Source: a virus. From it: a stretch of 64,000 bases of DNA. Position numbers and translations under genes: made by a program. The DNA is taken from the IMG/VR virus record IMGVR_UViG_3300008107_005910, positions 1-64,000 of that record; one strand, given 5' to 3'. Positions 7,302 through 62,896 of the stretch are shown here, in pieces. Position 1 is the stretch's first letter. Every line of letters starts with the position of its first letter. The notes under the pieces were generated by a model, which had not been told where the DNA came from, made no database searches, and saw only the letters and a program-made list of their open reading frames with translations.

Positions 7302-7356
7302 ATTATACATGGAACAATAGTTCTTAGGTTTTCAAACACACACAAAAGGAGATATT

Positions 7357-31006: not shown

Positions 31007-31087
31007 TTGTTTTCTCCTTATGTTGACGTTCTAGGTCATACGCTGTGGGTACAGCATAAACTTGCCCTATGCAAGCTGACTGTATAT

Positions 31088-37325: not shown

Positions 37326-37539
37326 TCTTATTCCAAAGTCTTTCATGTAGATAATACAAAATAGTATTTGCTATCAGTTGTATTACTGCGATAGTACCTG
37401 CTATAGTTAAGTCACTGGATATAAGCCAGCTGATTAAAAAAGTAGAACCACTTCCAGTTAATCGCCAGCTTATTGTTTTAACTATACTACGACGTGGACT
37501 TTCATTCAAGTCCCATCTCCTTACGAATCTTTGTAGCAC
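37303..37539 (-). CDS. DUF2061-like small membrane protein
   Basis: ES..RSIVKTISWR...YYLHERLW. Confidence 0.75.
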   Translation of the reverse strand: MLQRFVRRWDLNESPRRSIVKTISWRLTGSGSTFLISWLISSDLTIAGTIAVIQLIANTILYYLHERLWNKINWQRFQ

Positions 37540-38293: not shown

Positions 38294-38349
38294 AATAGAT
38301 GCATCCTTTGATTTATTTATTGGTGATAACTGCGTACATAAATATTTCC

Positions 38350-39870: not shown

Positions 39871-39871
39871 T

Positions 39872-45826: not shown

Positions 45827-46851
45827 TTAAACGGCTTCCTTGGCAAATAAAAATCACCGCCGCAGTAATCCCAACGACATTTAGTTCCAGAATTAAACAG
45901 TACATTCATTTTGGTAACAGCCAATCTATCATTCACTAAATTAGTATATGGTGTTTCAGGTATACATTCTCTTAGATAATTGGTCATGTGTATGCCGCAG
46001 TTAAAAACATTACCATCACCATTAATGGTAATGCTACGTGTTCCAGCGGCACAGTGCCAACCTCTATTATCAACACCTTTTTTAAATAAATCATTAGTGT
46101 TGTACATTACACCGTCAATACAATAAAGTTGTTCAGTCTTATTGTATTTGTTGTAAAATTCAATATGACGTTTTGATGTTTCTTCATTATATGCGTAATG
46201 ACAAAACCCATAAATCATTTCACTATTAATAATCTTATCATAGGTTAAACACTCTTTAACGTAATCATAAAATTCGTCAATATGCTCTTCTGGAATATTT
46301 TCTAACATAACATCAAAGTTATGTATGGCAACGCCTAACTCTTTAATTCTATTAAAATTTTGTTTGAATGAGGACAGTTTGTTAGTTCGATCTTTTAATT
46401 CTAAATAGTGTAGAGATACATTGAACTGTTCACATAGTGGTAGCAACTCTTCTAACAGCTCTGTTTTAAATGTTAGATTAGTTTGCATTTCATTATATGC
46501 TGTTATACCTGTCTCAGAACTCTTTTTCTTCACATATTTTAATATATCAATTACTTTGGGATGTCTAGTTGCCTCACCGCCGTGATAGTAAAACATCACA
46601 CTATTAAATTTGTTCTTTTGAAAAAATTCAAAAAGTTTGTCAATACTAGTAATAATGTCTTCGTACTTGTAATGTCGTCCTGAATGCCAATGGCAATAAT
46701 TACAATGCAAGTCGCAAGCTTCTGTAATTCTAAATGTTACATTGTACTCAGCATTGTACCCACCATGGTCATTTACCTGTACTATTTTATATGATTCTAT
46801 TGGCTTTATCTCGCCAACTTTCATTTCTTCTTTAGTTGTTATTTTTGTCAT
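45823..46851 (-). CDS. radical SAM protein with C-terminal Cys cluster
   Basis: CDLHCNYC, HGGEAT, C.AG...GNVFNC, CRWDYC. Confidence 0.9.
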   Translation of the reverse strand: MTKITTKEEMKVGEIKPIESYKIVQVNDHGGYNAEYNVTFRITEACDLHCNYCHWHSGRHYKYEDIITSIDKLFEFFQKNKFNSVMFYYHGGEATRHPKVIDILKYVKKKSSETGITAYNEMQTNLTFKTELLEELLPLCEQFNVSLHYLELKDRTNKLSSFKQNFNRIKELGVAIHNFDVMLENIPEEHIDEFYDYVKECLTYDKIINSEMIYGFCHYAYNEETSKRHIEFYNKYNKTEQLYCIDGVMYNTNDLFKKGVDNRGWHCAAGTRSITINGDGNVFNCGIHMTNYLRECIPETPYTNLVNDRLAVTKMNVLFNSGTKCRWDYCGGDFYLPRKPFK

Positions 46852-47438
46852 TATATGACCATCCTAGTACCAGTTACATCTAACTCAATGTAGCTTAAAC
46901 CTTTTATGGTTGGTACATTTATAATTTGTTTTGCGGCAATTAATGGATCTACTGCTTGATCAATATGACTTAGGTTACCTGTAAGTTTTGTTCTAACAAA
47001 CCCAGGATGAACCAATTGCCAATTAATGTGTTCAAATTGTTTTGACAGTTCCATCACTCCCATGTTTAATGCCGCCTTGCTCATTCGATAATATATAGAA
47101 GCAGTATCAGCTGAGATTACATTGCCTTTAGTCAATGCACCAAGTATACTTGTTAATACAACAATCTTGTCGTTAACATGCGGAGCAATATACTGTAAAA
47201 ACTCAATGCTTCGCGTTGCATTAACTTCCATTGTTTCATCTGCTTCAGTTGATATACCAATACAATAATATACTTTTGAAAACTTGTTTTGGAATACGGG
47301 CCAACTACTCTTATCTTTAATATCTAACTGTATAAATTTAGAATCAGTCCTTCTACTCGTACCAAGTGCATCAGGCAATAATTCATGTATTGCTTTGCCA
47401 ATGCCGCTGTCAACACCAATAACAATATCCTTAATCAT
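46851..47438 (-). CDS. short-chain dehydrogenase/reductase
   Basis: GVDSGIG, YRMSKAALN, VHPGFVRT. Confidence 0.88.
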   Translation of the reverse strand: MIKDIVIGVDSGIGKAIHELLPDALGTSRRTDSKFIQLDIKDKSSWPVFQNKFSKVYYCIGISTEADETMEVNATRSIEFLQYIAPHVNDKIVVLTSILGALTKGNVISADTASIYYRMSKAALNMGVMELSKQFEHINWQLVHPGFVRTKLTGNLSHIDQAVDPLIAAKQIINVPTIKGLSYIELDVTGTRMVI

Positions 47439-48069
47439 TTTTCTTCTGCAATTTCATAAGTACATCCATACCTCGATAGCTTACATCAAAAGCCAATGAC
47501 AAACGAGGGACTTCTGTTTTATTTGGACGAACACCATGTTTGAGCCAACTAGGGAATAGTATCAATTCTCCTGTTCGTGTTGATATCTCTTGGCAATTTT
47601 GTGATAACTTATGTTCATCGTCTTGTGGCAAAGTAGATGCTAATGCTTCGTTAGGATCTTGAAAGTATATGTTTCCTTGCTCATCGGATTCTTTATACAC
47701 ATAAAAACAACCTGATATAAAATAAGGGCTATGGTTGTGCATAATTGCATGACCACCATTATTATATTTGTTTGCCCAAGAGTAGTGTATGCCAGGACTT
47801 TGTACCAATCCCAATTCTTTCCAATATACTTCAATGTGTTGATTAATAAAATCCCAAACGTCAGATAATATTTTTTCTTTGTGCAAGAACAACATTCCAT
47901 TGGTACTTGTGCTTATTTCCTTACCTGTGCCTGAAAGCTCTGCGTAGGTAGCCGTATCTTTATCAAACTGATGAAAGAATGGTTCAAGCCTGCGCATAAA
48001 ATCCACATGATCATAATCAGGCATTGTTGCTCTATATATTCGTGTAGGAAATAAATTCACTATGGACAT
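47431..48069 (-). CDS. 2OG-Fe(II) oxygenase (phage type)
   Basis: SWAN, HNH..ISGCFY, LFPSWLKHGV.PN..RLSLAF. Confidence 0.85.
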   Translation of the reverse strand: MSIVNLFPTRIYRATMPDYDHVDFMRRLEPFFHQFDKDTATYAELSGTGKEISTSTNGMLFLHKEKILSDVWDFINQHIEVYWKELGLVQSPGIHYSWANKYNNGGHAIMHNHSPYFISGCFYVYKESDEQGNIYFQDPNEALASTLPQDDEHKLSQNCQEISTRTGELILFPSWLKHGVRPNKTEVPRLSLAFDVSYRGMDVLMKLQKKND

Positions 48070-48075
48070 GATACA

Positions 48076-49032
48076 TTATAACACATTTGGGTTATAAAAC
48101 ACAAGAAATTGTGGAACAAACCAAACTTGCTTGGCAAACTTATGGAACATCCAGAATCCCTCAAATGTGCCTTCTGGATAATCTGATGGAACAAACAGTA
48201 TCCTAGATTTCAATGTTTGTAGAGTTGGCCTTAATTTATTAAAAGTTCCTCGAATATGTATTTCATCTAGTTTGGAGATTTTACCACTATAGAACTTATC
48301 CTTAGAATCTGTTTCAGCTTCGTTGAACTCTGCACCCTTGTACACATGATACAAATCGTCTTGTTTGCCTAACCATATGCCAACCTCAACCAATTGGTCA
48401 AACAACTCTCTAACCTGTTCTACTGTAGTAAACTTATAGTCGTCATTATAAACAAAATTTTGATGGTAATCTAATAAGTTATTAGCATTATCAAACTCCA
48501 TATCAGACTGCGCTTTTAACTTATCAAACTCGCCATCACGTTGCTTTTCAACCCAATCATTCCAAATAAAGAACATAAAGCCGTCAGACTTATGTCCGTT
48601 ATAAATGCTCCATTTCATTCTATGAAATATAGTTTTACAAAAACAATTTAATTGATAGGTAAACTCTACTACATCAATGTATCCATTGCCATCCTTGTGT
48701 AGCATTGTTTCCATAACAATACCATCATAAAAAGGAATATTCCATTCCTGTAAATGTTTAAAACTTTCTCTGTCGTAAGGATTATCAGTTACAGGCGGAT
48801 TGCCAAAGTCTTGACGTTTGCCTTCTTCAGCTAATGTTCTGTCAATTACTTTGTTTACTTCTGCTATCTTCTTAGGGTTAGCAACATATACTCTAGGTCT
48901 TATTTGATACCCTGGATACTTTGCAGATAGTGTTTCAGACCTATTGCTTCTTCTTTCAACTAAGAAATCAATAATGCTTCCAAACTCTCCGCCTCTTAGA
49001 TATTCATCACTATCTACATCATATACTTTCAT
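48076..49032 (-). CDS. hypothetical protein
   Basis: 318 aa ORF in the island. Confidence 0.65.
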   Translation of the reverse strand: MKVYDVDSDEYLRGGEFGSIIDFLVERRSNRSETLSAKYPGYQIRPRVYVANPKKIAEVNKVIDRTLAEEGKRQDFGNPPVTDNPYDRESFKHLQEWNIPFYDGIVMETMLHKDGNGYIDVVEFTYQLNCFCKTIFHRMKWSIYNGHKSDGFMFFIWNDWVEKQRDGEFDKLKAQSDMEFDNANNLLDYHQNFVYNDDYKFTTVEQVRELFDQLVEVGIWLGKQDDLYHVYKGAEFNEAETDSKDKFYSGKISKLDEIHIRGTFNKLRPTLQTLKSRILFVPSDYPEGTFEGFWMFHKFAKQVWFVPQFLVFYNPNVL

Positions 49033-49708
49033 TTAATATCTCCTGTAAGGACAAAGGCTGATAGCCTAACTCCTTAAATACATTTCCTGGTAGCCTTGGA
49101 TCATTGTGGCAGTTAATAAAACTTGTATTTAGACTACTAAAAATATTGTTAAATTGATCTACCATTTCTGCTGTAATACTACTGCGTTTAAGGACTACAG
49201 ATTCATAGCGTGTAATCAAATTATTGTAGTTGTTATGTACAGTTGGACAATTAAATTTTTGCCCCATAAATTCAAACTTGCCATTTTTGATTATGTCCTC
49301 AAACTTTAAAGTCGTTACATAATCTAATTTAGACAACGTAATACTATCAATAACTGATGAAGTTGTTACTGGTGTTACATAATCTAATCCAACTGGTAAC
49401 TCGTCATCTTCAAACAAATCATCAATCCCAGTCAAATAAGACACTGTTGGGTGTCTAATTATATTCAATATTTGAACATCATAATCTTTACGTAGTTGAT
49501 CTAAGAACACGCGACTAAATGTTCCACCAATTGCTTGACATTGTTCTAAAGTATCATAGTCTTGTTTATACTCAACTTCCGTTAACATTCCTAAGTCAAC
49601 TCTAGGCAAAGAAAAGTTATTATAGCAATGCAAGTAAGACGCAACTGGACTAATTTCTTTTGCAAAGAACTTGTGTTTGATCCCAGGAAGACCACTCACT
49701 ACAATCAC
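49019..49708 (-). CDS. hypothetical protein (sulfotransferase-like motifs; paralog of 54796..55797)
   Basis: VSGL, NIIRHP, KFEDII. Confidence 0.6.
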   Translation of the reverse strand: MIVVSGLPGIKHKFFAKEISPVASYLHCYNNFSLPRVDLGMLTEVEYKQDYDTLEQCQAIGGTFSRVFLDQLRKDYDVQILNIIRHPTVSYLTGIDDLFEDDELPVGLDYVTPVTTSSVIDSITLSKLDYVTTLKFEDIIKNGKFEFMGQKFNCPTVHNNYNNLITRYESVVLKRSSITAEMVDQFNNIFSSLNTSFINCHNDPRLPGNVFKELGYQPLSLQEILNESI

Positions 49709-50520
49709 TCTAAACTCCTTTGTACAAATTTCATTAGCTCACCATAATACTCATCGTCTTTCATTTCTCTACCAGTAATTTTAAAACTACGAACTCCCAT
49801 CTCTTTTAGTCTACGCATTGCTGGTGGCTCTATATCCATTTCTTCATACTTGCTGTCCTTATCTGGATTAAACTTAGGCAACCAACATTCTTCTACTTCA
49901 CGACTGTATGGACGTCTTGCTGTGTTCTCATCAGCAATGGCTTTGAAGTGTTCATCAAAATATTTACAGCCCCAGACGCAGGTGTCGTTCAACATTACTT
50001 CCCATTTGGTTTTATCAAGCTCATTGGATCTAGGATCAAAGATATGTTCAAAACGTGGGACTATCCAGTCGTACTTAGTTTCTAGTTCCTTGTACCAGGA
50101 AATGTCTGAATCCTGTAATGGAATGTTTAGTCTGCCCATTCCAGTTATACTGTATATTAAATCATACTTGGGAAAATTATCACGCACATATTGACGTAGA
50201 CTGTCATTAACAATAATAAGGGCATTGCCTTCCCTGTGAAACTTTTCTAGTAATTCATTACCTAATGGATCAGTTAAATCAATATTATGATTACTAAAAG
50301 TTAGAGCTATGCTTACACCTTTACTGTAGTAATAATTGATAAGAGCATCACTATAATAAACATCTCTATTGATTCTTCCGCCGTTCCAATCACATTTGTT
50401 AATACCATCGTAGACAACTAACTCGTTAGTATCAACTAAGTTGTGACTTAGGAACTTAACAAGTGGAATTGATTTACTGAATGCGCCTGCTAATAGATAT
50501 CTCATTACATTAAAAAGCAT
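49705..50520 (-). CDS. U32-peptidase-like (Fe-S) protein
   Basis: WNGGR, EVMLNDTC..GC..H, C, FKITGR; family is inference. Confidence 0.6.
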   Translation of the reverse strand: MLFNVMRYLLAGAFSKSIPLVKFLSHNLVDTNELVVYDGINKCDWNGGRINRDVYYSDALINYYYSKGVSIALTFSNHNIDLTDPLGNELLEKFHREGNALIIVNDSLRQYVRDNFPKYDLIYSITGMGRLNIPLQDSDISWYKELETKYDWIVPRFEHIFDPRSNELDKTKWEVMLNDTCVWGCKYFDEHFKAIADENTARRPYSREVEECWLPKFNPDKDSKYEEMDIEPPAMRRLKEMGVRSFKITGREMKDDEYYGELMKFVQRSLE

Positions 50521-51254
50521 TTGTCTTTAGGACAAATACCATCCGTTTTAATTCTGTAGCAACAATTATATAGTTGCAAGTTTGGTCCATACAAAAAGTA
50601 TTTGTCTTTGTATAAACAAGTTTTGCCTTTAGTTGTGAAGTTAGGATTAGCCCACAACTCTGAGCGTGACTCACCTAAACGTTTCTCGTCTTCAAATTGT
50701 ATTATGTTTTTAAGTTTACTATCGTTTTTGAGTTGATTGAACTTGTCTAATATTGTATTGCTCACTCCATCACCAAAATCTGTAATGGGAGTCAAATACA
50801 CTTCTGAAGTTTGTGCAAGCTCTTTAACTTTGAAGTAATAGATTAAAGCATTCTCTTGGCTGTACATGATATCGTATCTACGTACATTATGCTGTGACTG
50901 CATTACTTCGTACAGTTCTTCAATGGACATTTCACTAGGATGTATACTTGCCTGCATTGTGAATGGCTGTTGAATTCCTTTAATTACTTTAACACTATAC
51001 GGACTTAGATTAGTTTGTATTACGAATGGAACGTTCAACTCGTTAAAGCATTGTATAATATATTCAATGTCAGGATGCACAAACGGCTCTCCACCAAATA
51101 CAAACACTTCCACGTTAGGATATGTTTCCCCTAACATCTTAACAAAGTTACGTATAGTTTCTCTATCTAAGTTGGGATAGATGCTTTTGTCCAAGTTGGT
51201 ACAATAAAAACAACCGTAGTTGCATTTCATTGTAATTTCCCATTCAACTTGCAT
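50505..51254 (-). CDS. radical SAM protein
   Basis: CNYGCFYC, GGEPF, QTN; C-terminal Cys cluster. Confidence 0.9.
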   Translation of the reverse strand: MQVEWEITMKCNYGCFYCTNLDKSIYPNLDRETIRNFVKMLGETYPNVEVFVFGGEPFVHPDIEYIIQCFNELNVPFVIQTNLSPYSVKVIKGIQQPFTMQASIHPSEMSIEELYEVMQSQHNVRRYDIMYSQENALIYYFKVKELAQTSEVYLTPITDFGDGVSNTILDKFNQLKNDSKLKNIIQFEDEKRLGESRSELWANPNFTTKGKTCLYKDKYFLYGPNLQLYNCCYRIKTDGICPKDKCFLM

Positions 51255-52146
51255 TTTTCACCTTTAGTTGTTTTAACAATCCATCACAATTACATGCCTT
51301 GTGTGGGCATATCATTGGTACAGTTTTTGTTATATTCTTAAAGTAGTCTGGGTTATCTATCAAACTTGTACGTTTGCCATCCAAACAAAACTTAATAACT
51401 CCTCCGTATACATCTACTTCGTAATTATTGTTGTAGCAACTCCAACCTTGAAAATTAGTTAAACCTTGATTGAAGACTTGATAATCATTAAACACATCAT
51501 CGTCATATACTAAATCTTTTTCAAAATCTTCTAAGAATTTGAAGTACTCCCAAAAGTCTTCTCTGTAATGAAACAATGTGTGTACATCCTTTCCGTATAT
51601 AAAATGTGGGTGTATTTTCAATCCTTCAATGCCTGCACAAATCTCAAACATCTCTTTGATAAGCGGCCACAATTTCTTGTCGTGATGTAACATTATATTG
51701 ACTTTACATTTATATCCACGACTCAACATTAATTTCATATTAGCAATGAATCTATCCCTGTTGGTACAATCAGCAGGATGATAACTGAACAAAAATGCTA
51801 TCTTGTCATATTGTGGATGACTAGTAAAATCTCTCTCAGCATTGGTTACTACGTATACCCATTTGAACTTGTCAATTGCATGTAGTCTGTCCATTATGTA
51901 ATAGTAATGAGGACTTAGTGTTGGCTCTCCGCCCAACAATCCTAAATTGAAATTCAAACTGCTACGACTTAAAGAATCAATGACAGCATCAACAACTTCA
52001 CGCTTGCCCATTTGTCCCCATTTTTCTGCATACTCATTACGAGCGTAACAGTAAGAACAGTTTAATTGGCATATGGTTAAGACATCCCAATGCACATTAA
52101 TGTGATCAGGATCTTGATCTATGTGATGTTGCTTTGAATACTTCAC
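51244..52146 (-). CDS. radical SAM protein
   Basis: CQLNCSYC, GGEPT; CPHKACNCD tail. Confidence 0.9.
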   Translation of the reverse strand: MKYSKQHHIDQDPDHINVHWDVLTICQLNCSYCYARNEYAEKWGQMGKREVVDAVIDSLSRSSLNFNLGLLGGEPTLSPHYYYIMDRLHAIDKFKWVYVVTNAERDFTSHPQYDKIAFLFSYHPADCTNRDRFIANMKLMLSRGYKCKVNIMLHHDKKLWPLIKEMFEICAGIEGLKIHPHFIYGKDVHTLFHYREDFWEYFKFLEDFEKDLVYDDDVFNDYQVFNQGLTNFQGWSCYNNNYEVDVYGGVIKFCLDGKRTSLIDNPDYFKNITKTVPMICPHKACNCDGLLKQLKVKNAS

Positions 52147-52802
52147 TGATACTCCTTTAAGAAATCCATAGATACAATAACATCTAATTCTTTCTTTGTT
52201 CCTTCAAACGAAATATTGTCGCCACCATCTATTGTTTGATAAAATAATACTTTGTTTAATGTAAGAACTTGTTTTGAATGTTTGGCTGCAAACATTACTA
52301 AATTAATGTCGTTGTGTACATTATTATCCATTGGGAATGGAAAATGTTCAATTACTTTACGTTTAAAAATAAACTGTGATAATTGCAAGTGCTCTAAATT
52401 AAGATTAGATACAAATTCCTCTGGTGTAAGTAGCGCATCATTAAACAAGCGCATGAATGTTAGCTTGTCGTCTGTATTATATGTTGGACAGTAGTTACCA
52501 GCAATGATATCTGCAACTAAGGGGACTTCAAAGTTCTTTACTAGATAGTCATCATCTTCTAAAAAGTATACATACTCGCCTGAAGCTTTTGATAAAAGGA
52601 ATTGATAGACTTTAGATAGATTATCAAACTTATTAAAATAATAAGTTATGTTAGGATGGTAGTCTTCTGGAATCACATCATCACTATCATTATTGACTAT
52701 GATCTCTACGTTGTTATTGTCAAGCAATAGACGTGCAGATTTCAAACAGCGTTTGAATAACTCTGGACGTTTATGTGTAGGTATCAATATGCTTAGTTTC
52801 AT
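52143..52802 (-). CDS. glycosyltransferase family 2
   Basis: LSILIPT..RP, A.GEYVYFLEDDD. Confidence 0.88.
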   Translation of the reverse strand: MKLSILIPTHKRPELFKRCLKSARLLLDNNNVEIIVNNDSDDVIPEDYHPNITYYFNKFDNLSKVYQFLLSKASGEYVYFLEDDDYLVKNFEVPLVADIIAGNYCPTYNTDDKLTFMRLFNDALLTPEEFVSNLNLEHLQLSQFIFKRKVIEHFPFPMDNNVHNDINLVMFAAKHSKQVLTLNKVLFYQTIDGGDNISFEGTKKELDVIVSMDFLKEYQ

Positions 52803-53866
52803 TTTTTTAAATAAAAGTTTACTTCTTTAATTTTTTCACCTGGTTCTGGATAAAATTCTTCATCCATTTCCTTTTTAATTCCATCACAAATATAAAAATG
52901 TTTACAAGTTACACAACTTAAATCTTTACGATAAAATCTTTCTCTATGACTGGCGGCTTCTTTATACGCCATTTTAACTTTCTCTTCCTCAGTATATGGT
53001 CTGCTTACATCCATTTCTTGATTGTAGGTTTCGCGATTCCAATCTCTAACATCATATATGTGTTGAAATATATTATACTGATATTGTTCATAACCCTTCA
53101 TATAGCAGTACGGAGTATATCGAACAATTATTTCAATTTCCTTATCTAATTTATCAATACATTTTTTAATACCGTCAGTTAAATCAGATAGACTTAAATT
53201 GCTAAAGTCTTCTTCATTGTTCTCAAGCCAATAATTTAATGTAATAAAATTAACAGCTACTGGCTTAATTGAATTAATTAGGTCTGCATAAACATTTTCA
53301 AGTTGATGATAATTTCTAGAATAAACTGTACAATTGATTCTAACAATCATTCCCAATTCTTGTGCGTTTTTTATTCCTTGTAATATTTTTTCATATGATC
53401 CTGGACGATTAGTAATTGCCTCATGTGTTTCTTTGGTAGGCCCATGTAAGCTGAACAATATCTCTTTTAATCCATGTTCCTTACTCTTACGTAAGTGATT
53501 CATATTGGCAAAAGTTCCGCCATGGCTTAGACAACTAATACTGGTAAATCTTTCATTACAGTAATCTAAAATTTTAAACCAATCAGGACTCATGGAACTT
53601 TCGCCGCCGCTTAAATCAACTTCAGTAATGCCGTAATCATACAAATAGTCAATCCTCTTTTTGACCACTTCCCATGGAGTTTTTTGATCTAGTATATCCC
53701 TATAATAACAAAATTCACAATCATAATTACATAACGGACCAGTGTCTAATCTAGACCTATTACATCTAGTAGATTTAAAATCATAATTTAATCCAGACAC
53801 ACTCAACTGTTGTAAGTCGTGTTGTACAGGAGATTGTTTTGTAAAAGATATTTTACTTTCTTTCAT
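52799..53866 (-). CDS. radical SAM protein with C-terminal CxxCx5C motif
   Basis: CNYDCEFC, SGGES, PYC, CVTCKHFYICDG. Confidence 0.9.
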   Translation of the reverse strand: MKESKISFTKQSPVQHDLQQLSVSGLNYDFKSTRCNRSRLDTGPLCNYDCEFCYYRDILDQKTPWEVVKKRIDYLYDYGITEVDLSGGESSMSPDWFKILDYCNERFTSISCLSHGGTFANMNHLRKSKEHGLKEILFSLHGPTKETHEAITNRPGSYEKILQGIKNAQELGMIVRINCTVYSRNYHQLENVYADLINSIKPVAVNFITLNYWLENNEEDFSNLSLSDLTDGIKKCIDKLDKEIEIIVRYTPYCYMKGYEQYQYNIFQHIYDVRDWNRETYNQEMDVSRPYTEEEKVKMAYKEAASHRERFYRKDLSCVTCKHFYICDGIKKEMDEEFYPEPGEKIKEVNFYLKK

Positions 53867-54792
53867 GTTATGAACTCTTTAACATATTTGATAAAATCAT
53901 CGTTATCTGTCAATAATAATGAATTAATGTCTTTTGAAATATCTTCTCGCCTTCTTTCAACGCCACCGCAGACATAATCAATATCATATATCACTTCCTT
54001 ACCATAAACTGCACACTCAACAATAAACCTTGGGCTACAATCTCCTTTATCTGGTGTAGCAGTATATATGTAGGTATCAAAGTTTTCAAATATATTTTTG
54101 ATTGGCGCTTGAGCAACAATCACATTGTCGCTTGCTATCGTTTTGTAGATGTGAGGTTCATTAGTAAGTACTAGATATTTGTCAAATTGATATTTAGATA
54201 AAACATTTTTCAAATCATTAATTGATAATGCTCTACAGTTAGTAGTTAGGTAGAGAAGTGCTGTATTAGTTTTTATTAGTTGTGGATGATGATATTTTGA
54301 CCAAAGTATCTTTTTGACATAGTCTATTACTTTGATATTAATGTTATCATATCTCTCAGGATATAACTTAAAATCCTGCATGACATGAGCATGTTTGATT
54401 GTTTTGTGATTATGGAAGCTACTGAAGTCGTCTTCACTACACCTTAGTAAAAACATATTTTCAGTATAGAAGACACAACTTAAGAATCGCCAACTGCCAT
54501 CAACAACACAGACATTGTTTGCCATAACAATTTTAGGCACAGCACACTCAAACGTGTCTTCTTGTATTTTTACAAATTCGTCTTCTGTGAAACTATATTT
54601 GTCTTTGACCGCAGTTAAAAATAAATCTTTGCTAGTACGGTCAGTTAACAAAATGCAGGAATTAATTCCATTGATAGAACTTATGTAATAATAGTCGATG
54701 AGTTCATACAAGTGGCCACTGACACCATGCTGGCATTCAAAAGAAGTGGTGAAGACGAGATCGTACTTCTTTAGATCGACTATTTTGGACAT
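53863..54792 (-). CDS. hypothetical protein (possible GT-B glycosyltransferase)
   Basis: HGVSGH; DCSPRFIVEC..YGK resembles the GT-B E-x7-E region. Confidence 0.55.
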   Translation of the reverse strand: MSKIVDLKKYDLVFTTSFECQHGVSGHLYELIDYYYISSINGINSCILLTDRTSKDLFLTAVKDKYSFTEDEFVKIQEDTFECAVPKIVMANNVCVVDGSWRFLSCVFYTENMFLLRCSEDDFSSFHNHKTIKHAHVMQDFKLYPERYDNINIKVIDYVKKILWSKYHHPQLIKTNTALLYLTTNCRALSINDLKNVLSKYQFDKYLVLTNEPHIYKTIASDNVIVAQAPIKNIFENFDTYIYTATPDKGDCSPRFIVECAVYGKEVIYDIDYVCGGVERRREDISKDINSLLLTDNDDFIKYVKEFIT

Positions 54793-54795
54793 CTG

Positions 54796-55797
54796 TCACT
54801 CCTTTGGAGCGAAGATTTGTTCAAGAGTGATTGGGGTGTAACCTAAAGAAACAAGCAAAGAATCTGAAAGATGTGGGAGTGGACGATTGTATTCTTTTTC
54901 TAATTCTTCTCTAAATCTAGAATATGCTGAACATATTCCTTCAACTGCGTCAACATCCACGTAGTCTAAATTTAAATTTTCTTTTTCCCACACAGATATT
55001 ATTCCGTTGTAATCTGCATATCCTTCAGGCATCTGAATTTTGTGATTTTCAATCTCAACGTAACCACTCTTTAATATATCTTCAAATTTAATAGATGTTA
55101 CGTCAGTGAGTTGGTTTAGTGTATATGCGTTAACTGCTGACCTAATTGCTCTTATTCGATTTCTCTCTGGAGACATTGTAGGATTTTTTTCATAATACGA
55201 AGGTTTATTTTCGTTGAAGTATGTAACTACGGAAGGGTGTCTTATGATATTGTACACCTTTACATTTTGCTCACCTATGTCTCTTTTTATTAAATCAATA
55301 AATGCTTTTGAAAAAGAACCATTTACAACATGTACATTAGATGGTCTATTTCTATAGTAATTTAAAAAGTCTTGATAACCGTGTGCAAAACTATGATACT
55401 GTATTGGAGTATCCCATTCATAGGCGCTAGTATCTATACCAAGATCATATTCTATATCAACAAAAATAGTTTCAAAACTTGAAGGATTATTTGTCATGTC
55501 TAAAAATAATCTATCATACAAGTCGTCAGCTTCTGTAAAAATAGACAACCCGTCCTCGCCGCTAAGAAGTGTTGTTAGTTCTCGATTTTTTGTATCATAA
55601 ACAACTTCATTTTGTGCATTGAATATTTGAAAAGGATGAGCTATATATGACTTACCATCGTCAGATTCTGCAAATTCTGCATCAAACGTAACAGTGTGTC
55701 CATTTTTCAAATTAAAGACTGGATTCATAGCGCAAAAAACTTTTTTTGCGATATAATTTTTATTAATTGATTCTAGACCACTAATAATGACTAACAT
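54796..55797 (-). CDS. hypothetical protein (paralog of 49019..49708)
   Basis: ISGL, GSFS..F.D.IK.D, NIIRHP, KFEDIL, LGY.P. Confidence 0.6.
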   Translation of the reverse strand: MLVIISGLESINKNYIAKKVFCAMNPVFNLKNGHTVTFDAEFAESDDGKSYIAHPFQIFNAQNEVVYDTKNRELTTLLSGEDGLSIFTEADDLYDRLFLDMTNNPSSFETIFVDIEYDLGIDTSAYEWDTPIQYHSFAHGYQDFLNYYRNRPSNVHVVNGSFSKAFIDLIKRDIGEQNVKVYNIIRHPSVVTYFNENKPSYYEKNPTMSPERNRIRAIRSAVNAYTLNQLTDVTSIKFEDILKSGYVEIENHKIQMPEGYADYNGIISVWEKENLNLDYVDVDAVEGICSAYSRFREELEKEYNRPLPHLSDSLLVSLGYTPITLEQIFAPKE

Positions 55798-55801: not shown

Positions 55802-56209
55802 TTATTTCCTTAGATAAGACTCAACAATCAAATTAACTGCGTCCTCATCATTTTGATTTGGCAGTCTTTTTAATTTGTTTATAATATCAAAATACTGTTC
55901 TTTTTTATCTTCTAAAATTTTAATTTCGTCTTTTAAAGTGATGTATTTTTCTAAATCTGCAATCAATGACTCGTCATTAAGTTCAATGATTTTAATATAA
56001 CATTCTTCTTTATTATCATCTGTGATTGCAATGCCTTTACTTAAAAATTTATTGTTTAACATCATTAAAGACACGAAGTCAATTAATTTAAAAGTTAAAA
56101 GGTCATCACCAAAATAACCACGGGCCTTAGTTTTAACTGCCCATGCCGCTTTTCCTGCATAAGTTGATCTGTCAATACCTTCTATTTCTTTTTTATTACT
56201 GTCATCCAT
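55802..56209 (-). CDS. hypothetical protein
   Basis: Start moved to MDDSNKK (GAGG RBS, right after the S74-frame stop). Confidence 0.65.
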   Translation of the reverse strand: MDDSNKKEIEGIDRSTYAGKAAWAVKTKARGYFGDDLLTFKLIDFVSLMMLNNKFLSKGIAITDDNKEECYIKIIELNDESLIADLEKYITLKDEIKILEDKKEQYFDIINKLKRLPNQNDEDAVNLIVESYLRK

Positions 56210-56210
56210 C

Positions 56211-56429
56211 TTAAGCCTCAATCATTTTTACTGGTAATTTTGAATAGTTTACTTGATAATAACCGTTTGAATCTTTACTTAGTGCATCTTCATATTTGGT
56301 GCCTAAAAGTTCTTGAGCCATAACACCAATATAAGTCTTAGCAGTGTTCCAAACGTAAGAGAAGGAATAAACATTTAAGCCTTCAACAATGTCAACAAGT
56401 TTGATAGATGTCTTTAATCTAATATCACT
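56211..56429 (-). pseudogene. orphan peptidase S74 / intramolecular chaperone domain, out of frame with 56428..56643
   Basis: Hand translation SDIRLKTSIKLVDIVEGLNVYSFSYVWNTAKTYIGVMAQELLGTKYEDALSKDSNGYYQVNYSKL...EA*; SD-x-RLK, G-x-MAQE, V-x-Y motifs; no start codon of its own. Confidence 0.8.
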
Positions 56430-56643
56430 AATTTAAATCGGCAGCTTCAATCAAACCAGTAAATCTAGCTTGAACTACAGGTGCGGCGGTGCTTCCTCGT
56501 CTAACACGTTCTAAATTGACTGCGGTTTCAATTTCTCTAAATTTGGTAGTTGTAACTTGTACTCCGGCTGCAACTGCTGGCAAAAAATAAATTACAGCAT
56601 CTGATCCAGGATTGGTACCAAATGTATTAATGACTTTTGGCAT
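56428..56643 (-). CDS. N-terminal part of candidate substrate/precursor protein
   Basis: GAGGAG RBS; stops at AAT TAG exactly where the S74 frame begins (+1). Confidence 0.7.
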   Translation of the reverse strand: MPKVINTFGTNPGSDAVIYFLPAVAAGVQVTTTKFREIETAVNLERVRRGSTAAPVVQARFTGLIEAADLN

Positions 56644-56656
56644 TACGTTGCTCCTC

Positions 56657-57046
56657 TTATATCTCTTTGTTCAAGAACTCTAAGTTCTGTTTAGCACTAT
56701 TTTGAGCAACAAACTTTTCATAATCGTCTAAATCAGAAGAGGCAGTTATAAAATCGAGAGTCTCTTCGTCTGGTGCTTTAGTAAAATTCATGTTTCCGTT
56801 TTCTACGGCTTGTTTTTCCAAAATGCTCAAAACTAATTCTTCCAATGAAAAACCCAAAATGCCTGTAACAATTTGGATTTTTTCGCTTACATCCATATTT
56901 TTTGTTTCAGCAACATGTTTGGCTGCTTTGATAATGTTTATTGACATACCAAAGCCTTCCATGAAGACGTATCCAACATCTTGATTCTCTTTCTCGATTT
57001 CCTTAATCAAATCATAAATTTGACCCATTTTTTCTTCAATCGCCAT
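56657..57046 (-). CDS. hypothetical protein
   Basis: AAGGA RBS; 129 aa. Confidence 0.65.
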   Translation of the reverse strand: MAIEEKMGQIYDLIKEIEKENQDVGYVFMEGFGMSINIIKAAKHVAETKNMDVSEKIQIVTGILGFSLEELVLSILEKQAVENGNMNFTKAPDEETLDFITASSDLDDYEKFVAQNSAKQNLEFLNKEI

Positions 57047-57926
57047 TTTTTAATTCCTTGTCTTTAAAATCGTGAAAACGCGGCGCATTTTCGTAATTAC
57101 CATATGTTGTGACGTTGCCTTCATCAGTGAAATACGTTTTTAACTGCTTTCGCTCCCCGCATCCGTTGCACATATCGCAAAATAGTTCACAAATAGGGGT
57201 TTTTATGCTGTTATTTATCCAATCATCTCTGAGCTGATTTTTAATCCTATCTAGGGTTTTCACATCGTTTTCGTCAATTTGTTCCCAAACTACAGATGTT
57301 ATCAATCTAACTGGCTTGAAGGTTTTAATGATTCTTGTCATATCTTCATAAAGATGATTGATATTAAGTTTGTGTATGGTATATCTTATTCTAAATTTCA
57401 CCCTATTTTGATTTAATTTAGATAAAACTTTAATTATGGTTGTAGTACTATCCATACCATTGTGGAAAATCCTATCGCCATTTCCCACACCGTCAAAGCT
57501 CACGTCTATGCTCAACTGTCCGCTCTTATAAAAGAAATTATTTTTAACCCTGTTAATAAATCTTTGACTTAAAAATCTTAAACCATTTGTGGTTAAATTA
57601 AAATGTACATTCTTTTTCTTAAGATATGCGTATGACATAGCGTAACAGACATTGTCCCATTCTAAAGTGGCCTCTCCACCAAATAGTACTATTAATGTTT
57701 GTCTGTCTGGATCCAATTCTCTTTCCAAGATAGCATCAATGCTTTTTTCAATATCTTCCTTAGTCATGATCTGTGGAGGACGACCTGGCAGATCTTCGTA
57801 ACAATAGGTGCAGGCTAAATTACACTTATTTGTAAAATATAAAACATTAACTGCTGAACCTTCAAAAGTAGGTTTCTCTGTTTTATCACCTACATAAAAT
57901 TCATAAGGAAAGGCCGTATCTGTCAT
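57036..57926 (-). CDS. radical SAM protein (anaerobic sulfatase-maturase-like core)
   Basis: CNLACTYC, FGGEAT, TTNG, SFDG; CELFCDMCNGC. Confidence 0.9.
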   Translation of the reverse strand: MTDTAFPYEFYVGDKTEKPTFEGSAVNVLYFTNKCNLACTYCYEDLPGRPPQIMTKEDIEKSIDAILERELDPDRQTLIVLFGGEATLEWDNVCYAMSYAYLKKKNVHFNLTTNGLRFLSQRFINRVKNNFFYKSGQLSIDVSFDGVGNGDRIFHNGMDSTTTIIKVLSKLNQNRVKFRIRYTIHKLNINHLYEDMTRIIKTFKPVRLITSVVWEQIDENDVKTLDRIKNQLRDDWINNSIKTPICELFCDMCNGCGERKQLKTYFTDEGNVTTYGNYENAPRFHDFKDKELKNGD

Positions 57927-58192
57927 TGTCTAGCCTTTGCTTCTTTTACAATGTGAGCAACATTATCTAAGAATTTTACGTAATCAAATTTATATTCAAA
58001 CAAGTGGCCTGCTTCATTCCTGTAATCAACATAATGATTGTCTACTTTTGCCTTGCCTTTTTTTGCTTCTTCAATTTGTTGTTGTAAATTATCAATAGTT
58101 AAAACAGTATCGCTCTTATGCTCAACTGGCTGCATTTCTACTTTAACAGGAATGGCAGCTATGCTTTTATAAGTTTTTTTTAATTCTTGCAT
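57923..58192 (-). CDS. small hypothetical protein
   Basis: 89 aa coupled between two radical SAM genes. Confidence 0.6.
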   Translation of the reverse strand: MQELKKTYKSIAAIPVKVEMQPVEHKSDTVLTIDNLQQQIEEAKKGKAKVDNHYVDYRNEAGHLFEYKFDYVKFLDNVAHIVKEAKARQ

Positions 58193-59307
58193 TTTTGCAC
58201 ATCCTTTGAATCAGAAGCACCTTCACTGAGCCAATGAACAATGAGGTCTTGAAATACTGGCTCATCTCGACATTCATCTACTACACGCATTGCTTGTTCG
58301 TAAGTGATGTGGAAAATTTCACAAATACTATCTAAAGGTTTGTTGTCGTTCATTATTTGACTGTAAGTACAACCTGCATTACATACTTGTTTTAGATCAC
58401 AAGGTTGGCACTTGTCAAAAGTTTTTGGATTAAACTTGTCTTGATAATATTTGAAATTATAATTGTCGTCCATGAGCATGATTTTCTTACTAGCAAATCT
58501 AGCACATGGATAAAACTCGCCGCTACTCATCAAAACACCACCGTGTGTTCCTGCAAAACAACCAAATGGTCTTTTACCTTTTACTAGTCCGTATATAGAA
58601 TCTAATATTGCCAGTCTAAGGAAACCAACACTACATGATACACCTTGTTTTAACTTTTCAATATAACAGTCAGTTAGTCTAACTAATTCAGTTTTGAAAA
58701 ATCTAATATCATCAGCAGTCCAAACATCGTCTCTAACAATACTAAAGTCTGGATGTGGGATACCCCAATCTAAAAGAAACTCAAAATTTTCTTTCATGTC
58801 TTTGGTATTGCCTGGCCAAATCATAACCTTACATCCATTTGCTAGATCTTTTATTAGATGTTTTTTGTGCTCGTATAAGTCTAAGATTCCATTAAACAAC
58901 TCTCCAGTTTCTGGATTAGTGTTTTCAAGTAAGGGAAGTAATGGTCTGCTTTCGTTTGAACTCATTCCATCAAAGCTCCAACTTATTCCTATTCCAGATT
59001 CTTTGATAAATTTAAACTTATCATCATCTATCATAGTTAAATTAGAGATAATGTTTATTCCTTTACATCTAGGATCTTTGGTTAATATTGGAGTTGCATG
59101 TTTGATCAATTCCCAATTTAATAAAGGCTCTCCTCCAAAAAAACTAACAAAGAAATCCTTTTGTCCAGAACGATCCATTAATTCAAATAGTTTTGGTAAA
59201 GATTCATCAAATGTTTCTTTGGTCATCCAAGTAGGACGATTTGCCACATAACAATAAGGACATCCCAAATTACATTTTTCAGTAACGCTAATTTCTAATA
59301 CAAACAT
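58180..59307 (-). CDS. radical SAM/SPASM maturase
   Basis: CNLGCPYC, FFGGEPLL, CFAG..G..YPC, C.PC...VCNAGC, C. Confidence 0.92.
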   Translation of the reverse strand: MFVLEISVTEKCNLGCPYCYVANRPTWMTKETFDESLPKLFELMDRSGQKDFFVSFFGGEPLLNWELIKHATPILTKDPRCKGINIISNLTMIDDDKFKFIKESGIGISWSFDGMSSNESRPLLPLLENTNPETGELFNGILDLYEHKKHLIKDLANGCKVMIWPGNTKDMKENFEFLLDWGIPHPDFSIVRDDVWTADDIRFFKTELVRLTDCYIEKLKQGVSCSVGFLRLAILDSIYGLVKGKRPFGCFAGTHGGVLMSSGEFYPCARFASKKIMLMDDNYNFKYYQDKFNPKTFDKCQPCDLKQVCNAGCTYSQIMNDNKPLDSICEIFHITYEQAMRVVDECRDEPVFQDLIVHWLSEGASDSKDVQKCKN

Positions 59308-59316
59308 ATCGTCTCC

Positions 59317-60423
59317 TTATGCTGTACATTGTTCAGCGTGAATCTTAATAACAGGCTTTTTGTATGTGTTCATTGCAGTTCTTAGAGCATGATGAACTAC
59401 TTCGTTTGTCTTAAAAACTTTACATACTTGCCAATTAGAAGTATGATCACTCCACTTTTCTAAATAAGTTTCTTTCTCTGATTTTTCAAACGTGGCTGCA
59501 TTACACTTCATGCAAAATTGGCTATCGCAACTCATACAATCCAAAGGTTGATTTTTTAGTGCATCTTTATACATTGCACTTCGTTCTTGTATAAGTTCAT
59601 CTATGTTAGGTGTTGTATTAATATTACCCATAACATGTGCATGTGATTCTTTATACATACAACCATGGCAAGGACTAATATCTCCGTTTAGGTCAACACT
59701 AACATATTTGATTCCAGCTGAACATAGCGGTCTACTCTGTTGGAACCAAGCAAAAACTTCTGGTTTTAGTTTATTGGTGTAAATGTATTTTGCAATTTTT
59801 GCCAATCCCTGTTTGAGCACTTCAAGTTTTGGATAAAATTCTTCTTCAGTTAATTGGCTGTAAAGGTCTGGAGTGGGGAAATATGAACCTGTAAGTTCAT
59901 ATACATCTAGGAATGCTTCATATATCAAGTGAAAGTTTTCAGCAGTTAAAACAGATTTCATTCTAACATTCAATCCATTTTCTCTAGCAGCCAAGAAATT
60001 AGCCTTTACTAGTTCAGAGCTTACGTTTCCTGATTTGTCTACTCTAGTTCTATCATTGACGGCCTTACCATCATAAGATATTTGGAACTGTAGTCTTTCA
60101 CCTAATTCTTTTGTTAGAGCAACTAGTTCTTTCATATACTTTCTTAAATATACACCATTGGTATAAAAGAAGAAACTATAATTAGAATCATGTTTATATT
60201 TTTCTATGACGCCTTTACAAAATTCCCAATTAATAAAAGGTTCACCGCCCCAAAAATAAATTTCTCTTTTTGGGTCTGAGAGTTTACTCATAAACTCTTC
60301 AATGTTGTCTAGGGTTACGGAAGTGTTTTCTTCATATGCTGTTGATAGGCCGCATTCATAGCCTTCAGAACAGTAAGTACAAGCCAGATTGCACGTACTG
60401 GTTACGTTGATGTCAATTATCAT
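59317..60423 (-). CDS. radical SAM/SPASM maturase
   Basis: CNLACTYC, WGGEP, CSAG..GDISPCHGC, CMSC...CMKC, C. Confidence 0.92.
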   Translation of the reverse strand: MIIDINVTSTCNLACTYCSEGYECGLSTAYEENTSVTLDNIEEFMSKLSDPKREIYFWGGEPFINWEFCKGVIEKYKHDSNYSFFFYTNGVYLRKYMKELVALTKELGERLQFQISYDGKAVNDRTRVDKSGNVSSELVKANFLAARENGLNVRMKSVLTAENFHLIYEAFLDVYELTGSYFPTPDLYSQLTEEEFYPKLEVLKQGLAKIAKYIYTNKLKPEVFAWFQQSRPLCSAGIKYVSVDLNGDISPCHGCMYKESHAHVMGNINTTPNIDELIQERSAMYKDALKNQPLDCMSCDSQFCMKCNAATFEKSEKETYLEKWSDHTSNWQVCKVFKTNEVVHHALRTAMNTYKKPVIKIHAEQCTA

Positions 60424-61289: not shown

Positions 61290-62480
61290 ATGATTAATAA
61301 AGAACCATTTGAAAAACTAATAGCGGATTTAAAAGACAGTGGCAAATATCGAGTTTTTAACGACATTGTACGTGAAAACGGCAAGTTTCCAAATGCCATT
61401 TGGTACGGTCCTTATAACATTAAAAACATCGTAAATTGGTGCTCAAACGATTACCTAGGCATGGGTCAGCACAAAGTTGTTATTGACGCAATGCACACTG
61501 CGTTGGATCAAACAGGGTCTGGTTCTGGAGGTACTCGAAACATTGGTGGGACTAGTCACTATCACGTAGCATTAGAACACGAGATTGCCACGTTACATAA
61601 AAAACAAAAAGCAGTTCTTTTTTCAAGCGCCTATGTAGCCAACGAATGGACTCTAATCGCACTTGCTAAAATTATTCCAAATATTGAATACATCAGCGAC
61701 GAAAACAATCACAACAGTATGATTGTAGGTATTAGTCATAGTAAAGCCAAAAAAGTTATTTTCAAACACAACGATATGGATGACTTAGAGCAGAAGCTAA
61801 AAATTAGTTTTGCTCAGGGTAACGTGCCTTGTGTTGTTTTTGAAAGCGTCTATAGTATGGACGGTGATGTTGGTCACATAAAAGATATTTGTAAATTAGC
61901 TAAAAAATACAAAGCTATTACCTATATTGATGAAGTACACGCAGTAGGGCTATATGGACAACGTGGCGCAGGCAAAGTAGAAGAGCTTGGACTAGAGTCA
62001 GAGATAGACATTATAAATGGAACATTAGGTAAAGCATTTGGGGTGCAGGGAGGTTACATTGCCTGCGATAGTATTGTTGCTGACGCAATACGTAGTATAG
62101 CCGCAGGCTTTATTTTTACAACAAGTATGAGTCCAGTTACATGTGCGGGTGCTTTGGCTGCAATCAAATATTTAAAAGAGCACAATGAAATTAGAGACCG
62201 TCATCAAGAAAGAGCACAAAAATTGAAATTAGAATTAGTAAAAGCAGGACTTCCTCTTATGAGTTGTTCTACTACACACATTGTTCCTGTTCTAGTTGGG
62301 GAAGCTAAAAAGTGTAAAGCAATGAGTGATGCATTATTAAATGATCACAACATATATGTTCAGCCAATTAATTATCCTACTGTCAACGTTGGCACTGAGA
62401 GGTTGCGATTTGCTCCTACTCCGTTTCATGACGACGGGATGATTGAGGACTTGGTCAAAGCCCTCAAAACATTATTTTAA
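61290..62480 (+). CDS. hemA: 5-aminolevulinate synthase
   Basis: [60 protein letters not shown]. Confidence 0.93.
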
Positions 62481-62896
62481 ATATAGTTGTTGAACCAACC
62501 TATCTTCTTACCTTCAGCGATTCTGCGATCATGTTCCTCAACTGAACTAGGGTAACGCCAAGCCCAAATAGCTACAAGGGCCATAAAGATCGCAGTACTA
62601 ATAACGCCAATTAGTTTTACTCCGCTTGTGTACATTAAGACCAAACTTAGACTCATCATGGCAAGCATGAAGTATTTCATTTTTTGTGGGAACACTCGCT
62701 TCTCTCCCCAGTTAGTTAGGAACGGTCCAAACAGTTTGTGATTATACAGCCAGGCGTGCATCTTAGGACTGCCTTTGGCAAAGCAGTAAGCAGAAAATAC
62801 TACAAACGGACTGTAAGGTATACCAGGAGTAATGACTCCAATATAAGCCATACCTAGACTCAAAAATCCCAATAGTTTCCAAAATAATTTTTTCAT
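62477..62896 (-). CDS. YbaN/DUF454 inner-membrane protein
   Basis: G.IGV..PGIP..PF....YCF..SP....WL.NH.LFGP. Confidence 0.85.

Follow-up and report, generated by a model that had tools for sequence, protein, structure and literature searches.

A conserved phage radical SAM cassette whose substrate gene was probably knocked out by a recent 284-bp deletion

An out-of-frame S74 domain at the end of a radical SAM cassette

The IMG/VR virus record IMGVR_UViG_3300008107_005910 is 76.8 kb long in total, and its positions 1 to 64,000, hereafter called the window, are the stretch of DNA analyzed here. The minus strand of the window carries three genes for radical S-adenosylmethionine (SAM) enzymes, two small open reading frames (ORFs) and, downstream of them, a 71-amino-acid (aa) ORF with a ribosome-binding site (Table 1). 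All of these had been pointed out in an initial annotation made from the sequence alone, and all were recovered in our analysis. We consider it likely that they represent a conserved phage radical SAM cassette, the substrate gene of which has been knocked out by a recent deletion of 284 bp.

The sequence GAGGAG is located 7 nt upstream of the ATG of the 71-aa ORF, and the 3′ end of this ORF reads ...GAT TTA AAT TAG. A second frame, shifted by +1, opens at the second base of the TAG (position 56429) and extends over 72 codons, from SDIRLK to MIEA, up to a TAA at 56211 to 56213; the next ATG is at 56209. The proposal that a hidden S74 domain starts inside the stop codon was borne out by Pfam, as this frame matched Peptidase_S74 (PF13884) over profile positions 1 to 49 of 58, with an E value of 2.5e-7 and 31.3 bits, relative to a cut-off of 22. 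A six-frame search of the whole record with the same profile gave the same S74 result. The domain had been thought to end at a VNY sequence, but its true end lies 10 residues further on. Both Ser1 and Lys6 of SDIRLK are retained in the first six codons of the frame. A TAA is present two codons 5′ of the Ser, and no start codon is found before Met36.

The two pieces belong to a gene that is intact in a close relative

When the S74 piece was used as a query, phage loci were found in which this domain ends long proteins of all kinds. In two loci, L003 and L004, the proteins are small, with an N terminus like that of the 71-aa ORF and heptads of the CTCNCNY type directly before SDxRLK, and L003 is syntenic with the window gene for gene. 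The L003 protein yielded 669 matches, an unspecified share of which match the S74 domain alone. Among them is a 238-aa protein cluster, P0067, whose residues 1 to 71 correspond to the 71-aa ORF at 96% identity and whose residues 167 to 238 correspond to the S74 frame at 100%.

The DNA of the intact alleles comes from metagenome contigs, and the window and one such contig, L052, were compared as assembled. L052 is approximately 99% identical to the window over 8.4 kb. BLASTN produced two gap-free blocks, one aligning window positions 60643-56430 with L052 1-4214 (98.9% identity) and the other window positions 56429-52214 with L052 4499-8714 (99.3%), and the 284 bp at 56430|56429 are the sole indel. 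The L052 gene is uninterrupted and encodes 238 residues, of which residues 1-71 and 167-238 are the two window pieces, with 100% identity at the protein level and with the S74 domain in frame. The initial annotation was thus right in assigning both halves to one gene, and of the explanations that it offered for the split, deletion is the one that fits, as the window lacks exactly 284 bp of the L052 gene. Its guess that a Cys-rich repeat core had been lost was also correct, since the 95 codons that separate the two pieces in L052 encode the rest of the N-terminal domain and four CxCxCxY heptads.

The deletion begins with the second base of codon 72 and extends through the last base of codon 166, so that half of the N-terminal domain and all heptads are gone and the frame is shifted by +1. 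The junction in the window reads ...GATTTAAATT|AGTGATATT... The TAG is composed of the T of codon 72 and the AG of codon 167, and therefore this stop codon is the scar of the deletion. That the frame is 100% identical, in protein and in DNA, to the S74 domain of the intact homologue shows that the hidden domain is more than a chance resemblance. The substrate gene of the window is devoid of heptads, all four being inside the 284-bp deletion, and no heptad array was found elsewhere in any frame of the 76.8-kb record. All that is left of the substrate gene in the window is a 71-aa fragment and an S74 remnant that cannot be translated, which makes the allele null.

On its right side the deletion stops precisely between codon 166 and the codon for the Ser of the S74 cleavage site, leaving the chaperone module complete. 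This may be a coincidence or reflect a recombination-prone boundary. Recombination between AATT motifs located near both ends was considered, but its predicted product does not match the window sequence.

Relative to L052, the 5′ remnant has 2 nt differences, both synonymous, and the S74 remnant has none, which argues that the break is young relative to the approximately 1% divergence of the two contigs. The genes for enzymes 1, 2 and 3 differ by 10, 13 and 9 nt, respectively, but by 0, 0 and 1 aa. The three enzymes are thus under purifying selection, as 32 nt differences are accompanied by a single aa difference. If the substrate is modified as proposed below, the occurrence of a null allele beside intact enzymes would suggest that the modified protein is dispensable, at least briefly.

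The substrate gene is likewise uninterrupted in two other related contigs, L053 (94% and 87% identical) and L054. The truncated 71-aa form is present on one contig only, that of the window, while 238-aa forms of the same 90% cluster were found on at least 25 contigs (JGI, ENA, Logan, NCBI). That the deletion allele is a singleton is a point against its being genuine, as the gap might have arisen by an assembly or sequencing artefact, the sampled phage itself having an intact 238-aa gene. In addition, a pattern search did not find the junction sequence elsewhere in IMG/VR, and the missing stretch contains a 21-bp tandem repeat; an assembly collapse had been among the explanations offered in the initial annotation. 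Repeat collapse cannot yield the gap, however, because approximately 190 bp of unique sequence upstream of the 21-bp repeats are also lost. Both ends of the deletion lie outside repeats and have neither an 8-mer nor any microhomology in common, so a de Bruijn graph would have no k-mer by which to mis-join them. Both flanks are collinear with the same approximately 99% identical relative, which argues against a contig joined from two different phages. We therefore regard an artefact as unlikely and are fairly confident that the split gene is a real deletion allele.

A programmed +1 frameshift at AAU-UAG might join the 71-aa ORF to the S74 domain, yielding a functional 143-aa fusion, as the initial annotation had also envisaged. 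Such a shift would have to occur within a stretch of only two codons, which is precisely where the S74 frame begins. TAG is also rare as a stop in this record, ending 4 of 107 long ORFs (66 end with TAA and 37 with TGA), one of the four being the scar itself. Nevertheless, the deletion accounts for the arrangement, including the TAG. A tRNA-Asn on AAU would be unable to re-pair on AUU, and there is no Shine-Dalgarno-like stimulator upstream. No shift is needed in the at least 25 contigs with close homologues or in 120 more distant homologues, and the fusion would be without half of the N-terminal domain and all heptads. We thus consider recoding highly improbable. Two variants were tried and rejected: a −1 slip on U-UUA-AAU, a heptamer that is native to the intact gene, would lead to a stop after 5 codons and not into the S74 frame, and reassignment of TAG would run into a TGA at the next codon, while the approximately 99% identical intact allele uses the standard code. 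It is equally improbable that the S74 remnant is expressed by itself, starting at an ATT or at Met36, to serve another fiber protein as a chaperone in trans, despite two loci (L018 and L102) that have a substrate with an S74 stub and a separate 88-aa ORF resembling, by eye, the rest of S74, because no ATG, GTG, TTG or ribosome-binding site precedes the Ser, because the first Met is residue 36, beyond the catalytic Ser and Lys, and because the remnant is nucleotide-identical to the fused L052 domain, as expected of a fresh scar and not of an adapted gene. Even taken together, recoding and separate expression have very little likelihood.

The range of these relatives was also probed from other starting points. 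A search for related loci with the 71-aa ORF alone found none, and the same search with P0067 in viral contigs found distant S74 matches only. BLASTN of the cassette against GenBank phage records gave no match. A tblastn search of 50,697 GenBank phage records with the intact substrate gave none at 1e-8, and only S74 tails at 1e-2.

A family of heptad proteins

The intact gene encodes a helical N-terminal domain of approximately 125 to 135 aa, four C-x-C-[N/D/Q]-C-[N/D]-Y heptads and an S74 domain that adjoins the last of these. The typical heptad is Cys-Thr-Cys-Asn-Cys-Asn-Tyr. Exactly four heptads are present in 105 of 120 homologues, and more distant family members have up to several dozen. 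In the 120 homologues the Cys residues at positions 1, 3 and 5 are conserved at 100%; position 2 is Thr in 80% and otherwise Val or Leu, position 4 is Asn in 91% and Asp in 7%, position 6 is Asn in 96% and otherwise Asp, and position 7 is Tyr in 98%. As the repeats differ from each other at synonymous sites, the constraint acts on the protein.

AlphaFold2 modeling with 70 sequences predicted a confident helical domain at residues 13 to 140, with a predicted local distance difference test score (pLDDT) of approximately 90, and an S74 domain with a score of approximately 92. The N-terminal part is therefore not the short leader assumed in the initial annotation but a helical domain of approximately 125 residues, half of which is deleted in the window. 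With a folded domain of this size as its “leader” and a protein of 14 to 30 kDa as its predicted product, the system can at most be called similar to ribosomally synthesized and posttranslationally modified peptides (RiPPs). The fold of the N-terminal domain had no Foldseek match in the PDB at E ≤0.001, and its best VIA-align Z score, 6.4, is within the noise of that tool. Among viral models in BFVD, only ICA/S74 domains matched, with root-mean-square deviations of 1.1 to 1.9 over 62 to 73 columns. A predicted trimer of residues 1 to 166, using three copies, had a score of 0.01, which is uninformative either way.

Residues S167, D168, R170, L171 and K172 are invariant among 70 homologues. The S74 domain itself is optional, being fused in most homologues, absent in some, or reduced to a 12-residue stub. 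Homologues without it end with ...CNCNY or ...CNCNYS, that is, at most one residue from the predicted cut. Since these forms stop where cleavage is predicted, they provide independent support for the idea that the mature protein ends with the heptads.

In two loci (L018, positions 6263-8586, and L102), three or four paralogous heptad genes are found in tandem, only one of which has a full S74 domain. The other paralogues have the 12-residue stub, followed by the 88-aa ORF, whose likeness to S74 is by eye only.

Radical SAM genes accompany the heptad gene

Loci collected with enzyme 3 as the seed share a gene order consisting of a sugar dehydrogenase, enzyme 1, enzyme 2, a gene of approximately 90 to 100 aa, enzyme 3, a gene of approximately 130 aa, one or several substrate genes and a gene of approximately 135 aa. 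The same order, with proteins 60 to 78% identical, is found in L003, L018-L020 and L030-L036, and one extra gene of approximately 280 to 300 aa is present within the enzyme block in L021-L029, L032 and L033. A heptad gene occupies the substrate position in 18 of the 19 enzyme-3-seeded loci. The initial annotation had expected intact homologues beside radical SAM genes, and we found both an S74 domain above its threshold and homologues that possess the core and are syntenic with such genes.

Minimal cassettes comprise two enzymes, a small ORF, the substrate and the gene of approximately 135 aa. Enzyme 2 is the most constant of the enzymes and is encoded directly upstream of the substrate in these minimal forms, and enzyme 1 is 75 to 78% identical in syntenic loci.

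We also collected loci with the heptad pattern as the seed. Radical SAM genes are present within 8 kb of the heptad in 26 of 31 such viral loci, which represent approximately 17 groups at 70% substrate identity. In contrast, none was found near S74 proteins without heptads in 37 control loci (330 kb). Fisher’s test gave a p value of about 4e-14 for this difference, although the loci are not independent. Hence the enzymes accompany the heptad rather than the S74 domain. Among 185,579 species genomes, six contigs of metagenome-assembled genomes (MAGs) matched the heptad, and five of them have radical SAM genes near it. The paucity of heptad matches in species genomes suggests that the family is essentially viral. 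A literature search for phage radical SAM enzymes with thioether, ranthipeptide, SPASM or virion found no paper describing the cassette in the library covered.

Table 1. Features of the cassette and its borders in the window
Feature	Position	Strand	Evidence
NDP (nucleoside diphosphate)-sugar dehydrogenase-like gene, 246 aa	60471..61211	-	NCBIfam TIGR03026 127 bits, below cut-off 189.8
Radical SAM/SPASM enzyme 1, 368 aa	59317..60423	-	Pfam Radical_SAM 64.4 bits and SPASM 24.5 bits
Radical SAM/SPASM-type enzyme 2, 375 aa	58180..59307	-	Pfam Radical_SAM 48.1 bits
Conserved 89-aa protein, translationally coupled between enzymes 2 and 3	57923..58192	-	Synteny, homologues
Radical SAM enzyme 3, 296 aa, short Cys-rich C terminus	57036..57926	-	Pfam Radical_SAM 46.6 bits
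Conserved 129-aa protein, acidic, helical-looking	56657..57046	-	Syntenic homologues 38-46% identical, directly upstream of substrate gene
71-aa ORF, 5′ remnant of substrate gene (codons 1-71 of 238) plus TAG	56428..56643	-	Identity to L052 gene
Deletion junction	56429..56430	-	284 bp of L052 (4215-4498) absent between these bases
3′ remnant, complete Peptidase_S74 domain, out of frame, startless	56211..56429	-	PF13884 31.3 bits
Conserved protein of ~135 aa, after substrate gene in nearly all cassettes	55802..56209	-	Homologues 62-74% identical; phrog_25260
Downstream block: 333-aa and 309-aa proteins of unknown function, fourth radical SAM gene (355 aa, 52799-53866), GT2 (family 2) glycosyltransferase (52143-52802)	52143..55797	-	Pfam, PHROG

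The three enzymes resemble peptide maturases

All three enzymes have a CX3CX2C motif near their N termini, CNLACTYC in enzymes 1 and 3 and CNLGCPYC in enzyme 2. The Pfam cut-offs are 29.5 bits for Radical_SAM (PF04055) and 21.5 bits for SPASM (PF13186), and the SPASM match of enzyme 1, at 24.5 bits, is above the latter. For enzyme 2 no Pfam SPASM match was reported and a CX2CX5CX3C pattern is seen by eye, and enzyme 3 has only a short CX3CX2CX2C tail.

The best NCBIfam family for each of the three is PapB (NF047865), with 74, 122 and 91 bits for enzymes 1, 2 and 3, respectively. It is followed by SCIFF, QhpD, nif11 and other peptide maturases, all far below their cut-offs: SCIFF (TIGR03974) scored 55 to 62 bits against 425, and QhpD (TIGR03906), which is among the better matches of all three, 50 to 60 bits against 453. 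The CrpC family (TIGR04463) was not among the 25 best families listed per enzyme. The best relative of solved structure is CteB (5WGG), with E values of 1.7e-13, 1.5e-12 and 1.6e-8 for enzymes 1, 2 and 3. The alignments with 5WGG start at CteB residue 101 and phage residues 5-6 for enzymes 1 and 2, and at CteB residue 82 and phage residue 7 for enzyme 3. As they start past the N-terminal RiPP recognition element (RRE) of CteB, near the phage N termini, the three enzymes have no counterpart of that element. Enzyme 2 is 34% identical to radical SAM proteins of the CP220 group of Campylobacter phages.

Other proteins of the cassette and genomic setting

The 89-aa protein has 80 homologues, all of them unannotated and without a Pfam domain, and is encoded in every syntenic locus. 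Its AlphaFold2 model is of low confidence, with a pLDDT of 62 and a predicted template modeling score of 0.23. The 129-aa protein matched no Pfam, NCBIfam or PHROG family, and an ESM Atlas search with the protein of approximately 135 aa found nothing above chance. The NDP-sugar dehydrogenase-like gene forms the upstream border of the cassette and occupies the same place in L003, L004 and L018-L036. The order of the downstream block is kept in L019, L020, L031, L036 and L087-L094.

On the other side of the cassette, the window encodes a pyridoxal phosphate (PLP) enzyme of the class I/II aminotransferase fold (Pfam Aminotran_1_2, 231 bits; 61290-62480, plus strand) and a DUF454 membrane protein (62477-62896, minus strand). 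Both flank the cassette, and both are 78 to 84% identical beside it in L004, L018 and L020.

The cassette adjoins a tailoring island at window positions 36777-55797, mostly on the minus strand. Radical SAM genes of the island are found at 38299-39867, 45823-46851, 50505-51254 and 52799-53866, with a weak match at 51244-52011, and a Trp halogenase gene is present at 43902-45179. The island also encodes a 2-oxoglutarate-Fe(II) oxygenase, a short-chain dehydrogenase/reductase, a GT2 glycosyltransferase, an NAD epimerase, PIG-L and polysaccharide deacetylases and a protein like adenosine phosphosulfate (APS) kinase.

Elsewhere in the window, a permuted two-piece transfer-messenger RNA (tmRNA) is located at 5304-5759 on the plus strand. 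It matched Rfam tmRNA_permuted with 137 bits (gathering threshold 47) and beta_tmRNA with 119 bits (gathering threshold 84), and it was also called by ARAGORN, with a tag peptide. Its betaproteobacterial type hints at the host group. A match to the freshwater-2 cis-regulatory RNA of Rfam at 31004-31076 on the minus strand (65.8 bits, gathering threshold 49.9) is consistent with a freshwater origin.

Proposed function

We propose that the three RRE-less, CteB/PapB-like radical SAM (SPASM) enzymes act on the Cys residues of the heptads, perhaps assisted by the conserved 89-, 129- and 135-aa proteins. They would abstract a hydrogen atom from a carbon of Asn or Asp (or of Thr or Tyr) and join this carbon to the Cys sulfur. 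The most likely products would be thioether links of the ranthionine type, between the Cys sulfur and an Asn or Asp carbon, a chemistry that is favored because the C-x-x-N/D pattern occurs twice per heptad. The S74 domain would fold or trimerize the protein and then cut itself off at its Ser, and the mature protein would end in the modified heptads, which would form its C-terminal tip. In its full extent, the proposal is that large aquatic phages and the cultured Campylobacter CP220 group staple the heptads of a small trimeric particle protein by thioethers and that self-removal of S74 exposes the tip. We put this forward tentatively, as one possibility.

Several observations weigh against this proposal. 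The PapB scores of 74 to 122 bits are to be compared with a cut-off of 340, indicating that the enzymes are related to that family without being members of it. In the AlphaFold2 model the heptads have pLDDT values of 35 to 48, which gives no structural support for the geometry of a crosslink. Five heptad-seeded viral loci have no PF04055 match anywhere in the record; these are fragments estimated at 7 to 33% complete, and the heptad gene is cut by the end of the contig in two of them, L098 and L099, so that the downstream side is hidden. That the enzymes modify the heptad core we infer from gene neighborhood and family resemblance, and other substrates are conceivable, as the cassette lies in an island of approximately 24 kb rich in sugar-modifying enzymes and radical SAM genes. 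As for the virion, a role there is suggested only by the S74 domain, typical of fibers and spikes, and by the position of the CP220 homologue between tail-tube and baseplate genes.

The principal rival is that the heptads form an unmodified trimeric tip that binds metal or is locked by disulfides, the radical SAM enzymes serving sugars or cofactors of the tailoring island. The C-x-C spacing places a Cys at every other residue, an arrangement well fitted to metal ligation within a beta structure. HxH iron sites are known in T4 gp37, and metallothionein offers a likeness for such a tip. The island provides possible partners for the enzymes, with GT2, epimerase, deacetylase, APS-kinase-like and halogenase genes and at least four more radical SAM genes, and all three enzymes score under every maturase cut-off. 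Metal binding is also suspected for CrpA, a crosslinked archaeal protein, by its authors (PMC13692751). Nevertheless, radical SAM genes follow the heptad into minimal two-enzyme cassettes, Campylobacter phages and MAG contigs and are absent near S74 proteins without heptads (0/37). The best matches of all three enzymes are Cys-crosslinking maturases of peptides or proteins, not radical SAM enzymes that act on sugars. Moreover, the heptads, with an invariant Asn/Asp three residues past a Cys, follow the acceptor pattern seen in known ranthisynthase substrates. Modification would also be compatible with metal binding. We thus judge an unmodified tip to be rather unlikely.

The known substrates of radical SAM thioether crosslinking are short RiPP peptides, to which one archaeal protein, CrpA, was added in 2026. 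If the crosslinking proposal holds, the heptad protein would be the first viral structural protein of a RiPP-like kind to be crosslinked by enzymes. The chemistry would be extended to a phage’s own protein and coupled to a self-cleaving folding domain, and some of the numerous radical SAM genes in large phages that still lack an explanation would gain a possible role. The window adds a naturally occurring allele that has lost the substrate core and kept the enzymes intact, with an approximately 99% identical intact genome as its natural control. Because the family has a cultured representative and a simple, near-invariant core, it is open to direct testing.

Comparison with known systems

As judged from its genes, the cassette would represent a new variant of radical SAM protein crosslinking. 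One of the closest known parallels is the Crp system of Methanococcus voltae, in which CrpC, a SPASM radical SAM enzyme, introduces ranthionine crosslinks into the Cys repeats of the 28.8-kDa protein CrpA (PMC13692751). In both systems a SPASM enzyme is encoded beside a full-size protein and not a short peptide, and both substrates have a nonrepetitive N-terminal part followed by C-terminal tandem Cys repeats. The acceptor is three residues after the Cys in CrpA (C-x-x-Q/D), as it would be in the phage heptads (C-x-x-N/D). CrpC has an N-terminal RRE, whereas the phage enzymes begin directly with their radical SAM core. A single enzyme and repeats of 17 or 34 residues in the Crp system contrast with three paralogous enzymes and 7-residue repeats in the phage cassette. 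Finally, the Crp system is cellular, from an archaeon, and has no S74 domain, while the phage system is viral and known from genes alone.

The best matches in sequence are CteB-CteA (5WGG/5WHY) and PapB-PapA (freyrasin), whose enzymes share the CX3CX2C motif and a SPASM-type Cys motif with those of the cassette. Like the phage heptads, the CteA and PapA substrates contain repeated motifs of Cys and acceptor, but they are peptides of 40 to 50 aa, whereas the phage substrate is a protein of 200 to 300 aa with a folded domain. Unlike SCIFF/ranthipeptide systems, the phage enzymes have no RRE and the cassette has no leader peptidase or exporter, and release is predicted to occur through the C-terminal intramolecular S74 domain. 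The QhpD/QhpC pair resembles the proposed system in that a radical SAM/SPASM enzyme makes Cys-to-Asp/Glu thioethers in a subunit of a larger assembly. QhpC, the gamma subunit of quinohemoprotein amine dehydrogenase, differs in having no repeats and no autoproteolytic chaperone and in being nonviral.

S74 intramolecular chaperones are known from the endosialidase of phage K1F and from pb1, the L-shaped tail fiber protein of T5. The domain of the cassette shares with them the Ser-Lys site of SDxRLK, the fold and the C-terminal place directly after the part whose folding it would assist. In the K1F/T5 type it follows a long triple beta-helix or shaft, whereas here it follows a 28-residue array of Cys heptads on a very small protein. 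It has also been dispensable in evolution, as homologues carry it fused, as a mere stub or as a separate piece, or lack it, and in the window it is out of frame.

A pattern search, and that search only, brought out a further relative in the Campylobacter phages CP220, CPt10 and CP21 (Firehammervirus), which encode a 534-aa protein with six and a half copies of the same C-x-C-[D/N]-C-N-Y heptad. This protein (YP_009169314; NC_027997, positions 160932-162536, locus L118) is annotated as hypothetical in CP220, and CP21_105 is annotated as a putative N-acetylneuraminate pyruvate lyase, which looks like a misannotation. The 2010 paper on CP220 noted a 21-bp repeat in the coding sequence of CPT_0180, only as DNA, and 11 to 12 radical SAM genes, which were read as metabolic and found puzzling and were not linked to the repeat (PMC2853527). 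The CP220 protein is larger than the substrate of the cassette, with other flanking domains and no S74, and its gene is located among tail and baseplate genes. It shares with the cassette both the heptads and a nearby radical SAM gene, which in these phages lies three genes downstream.

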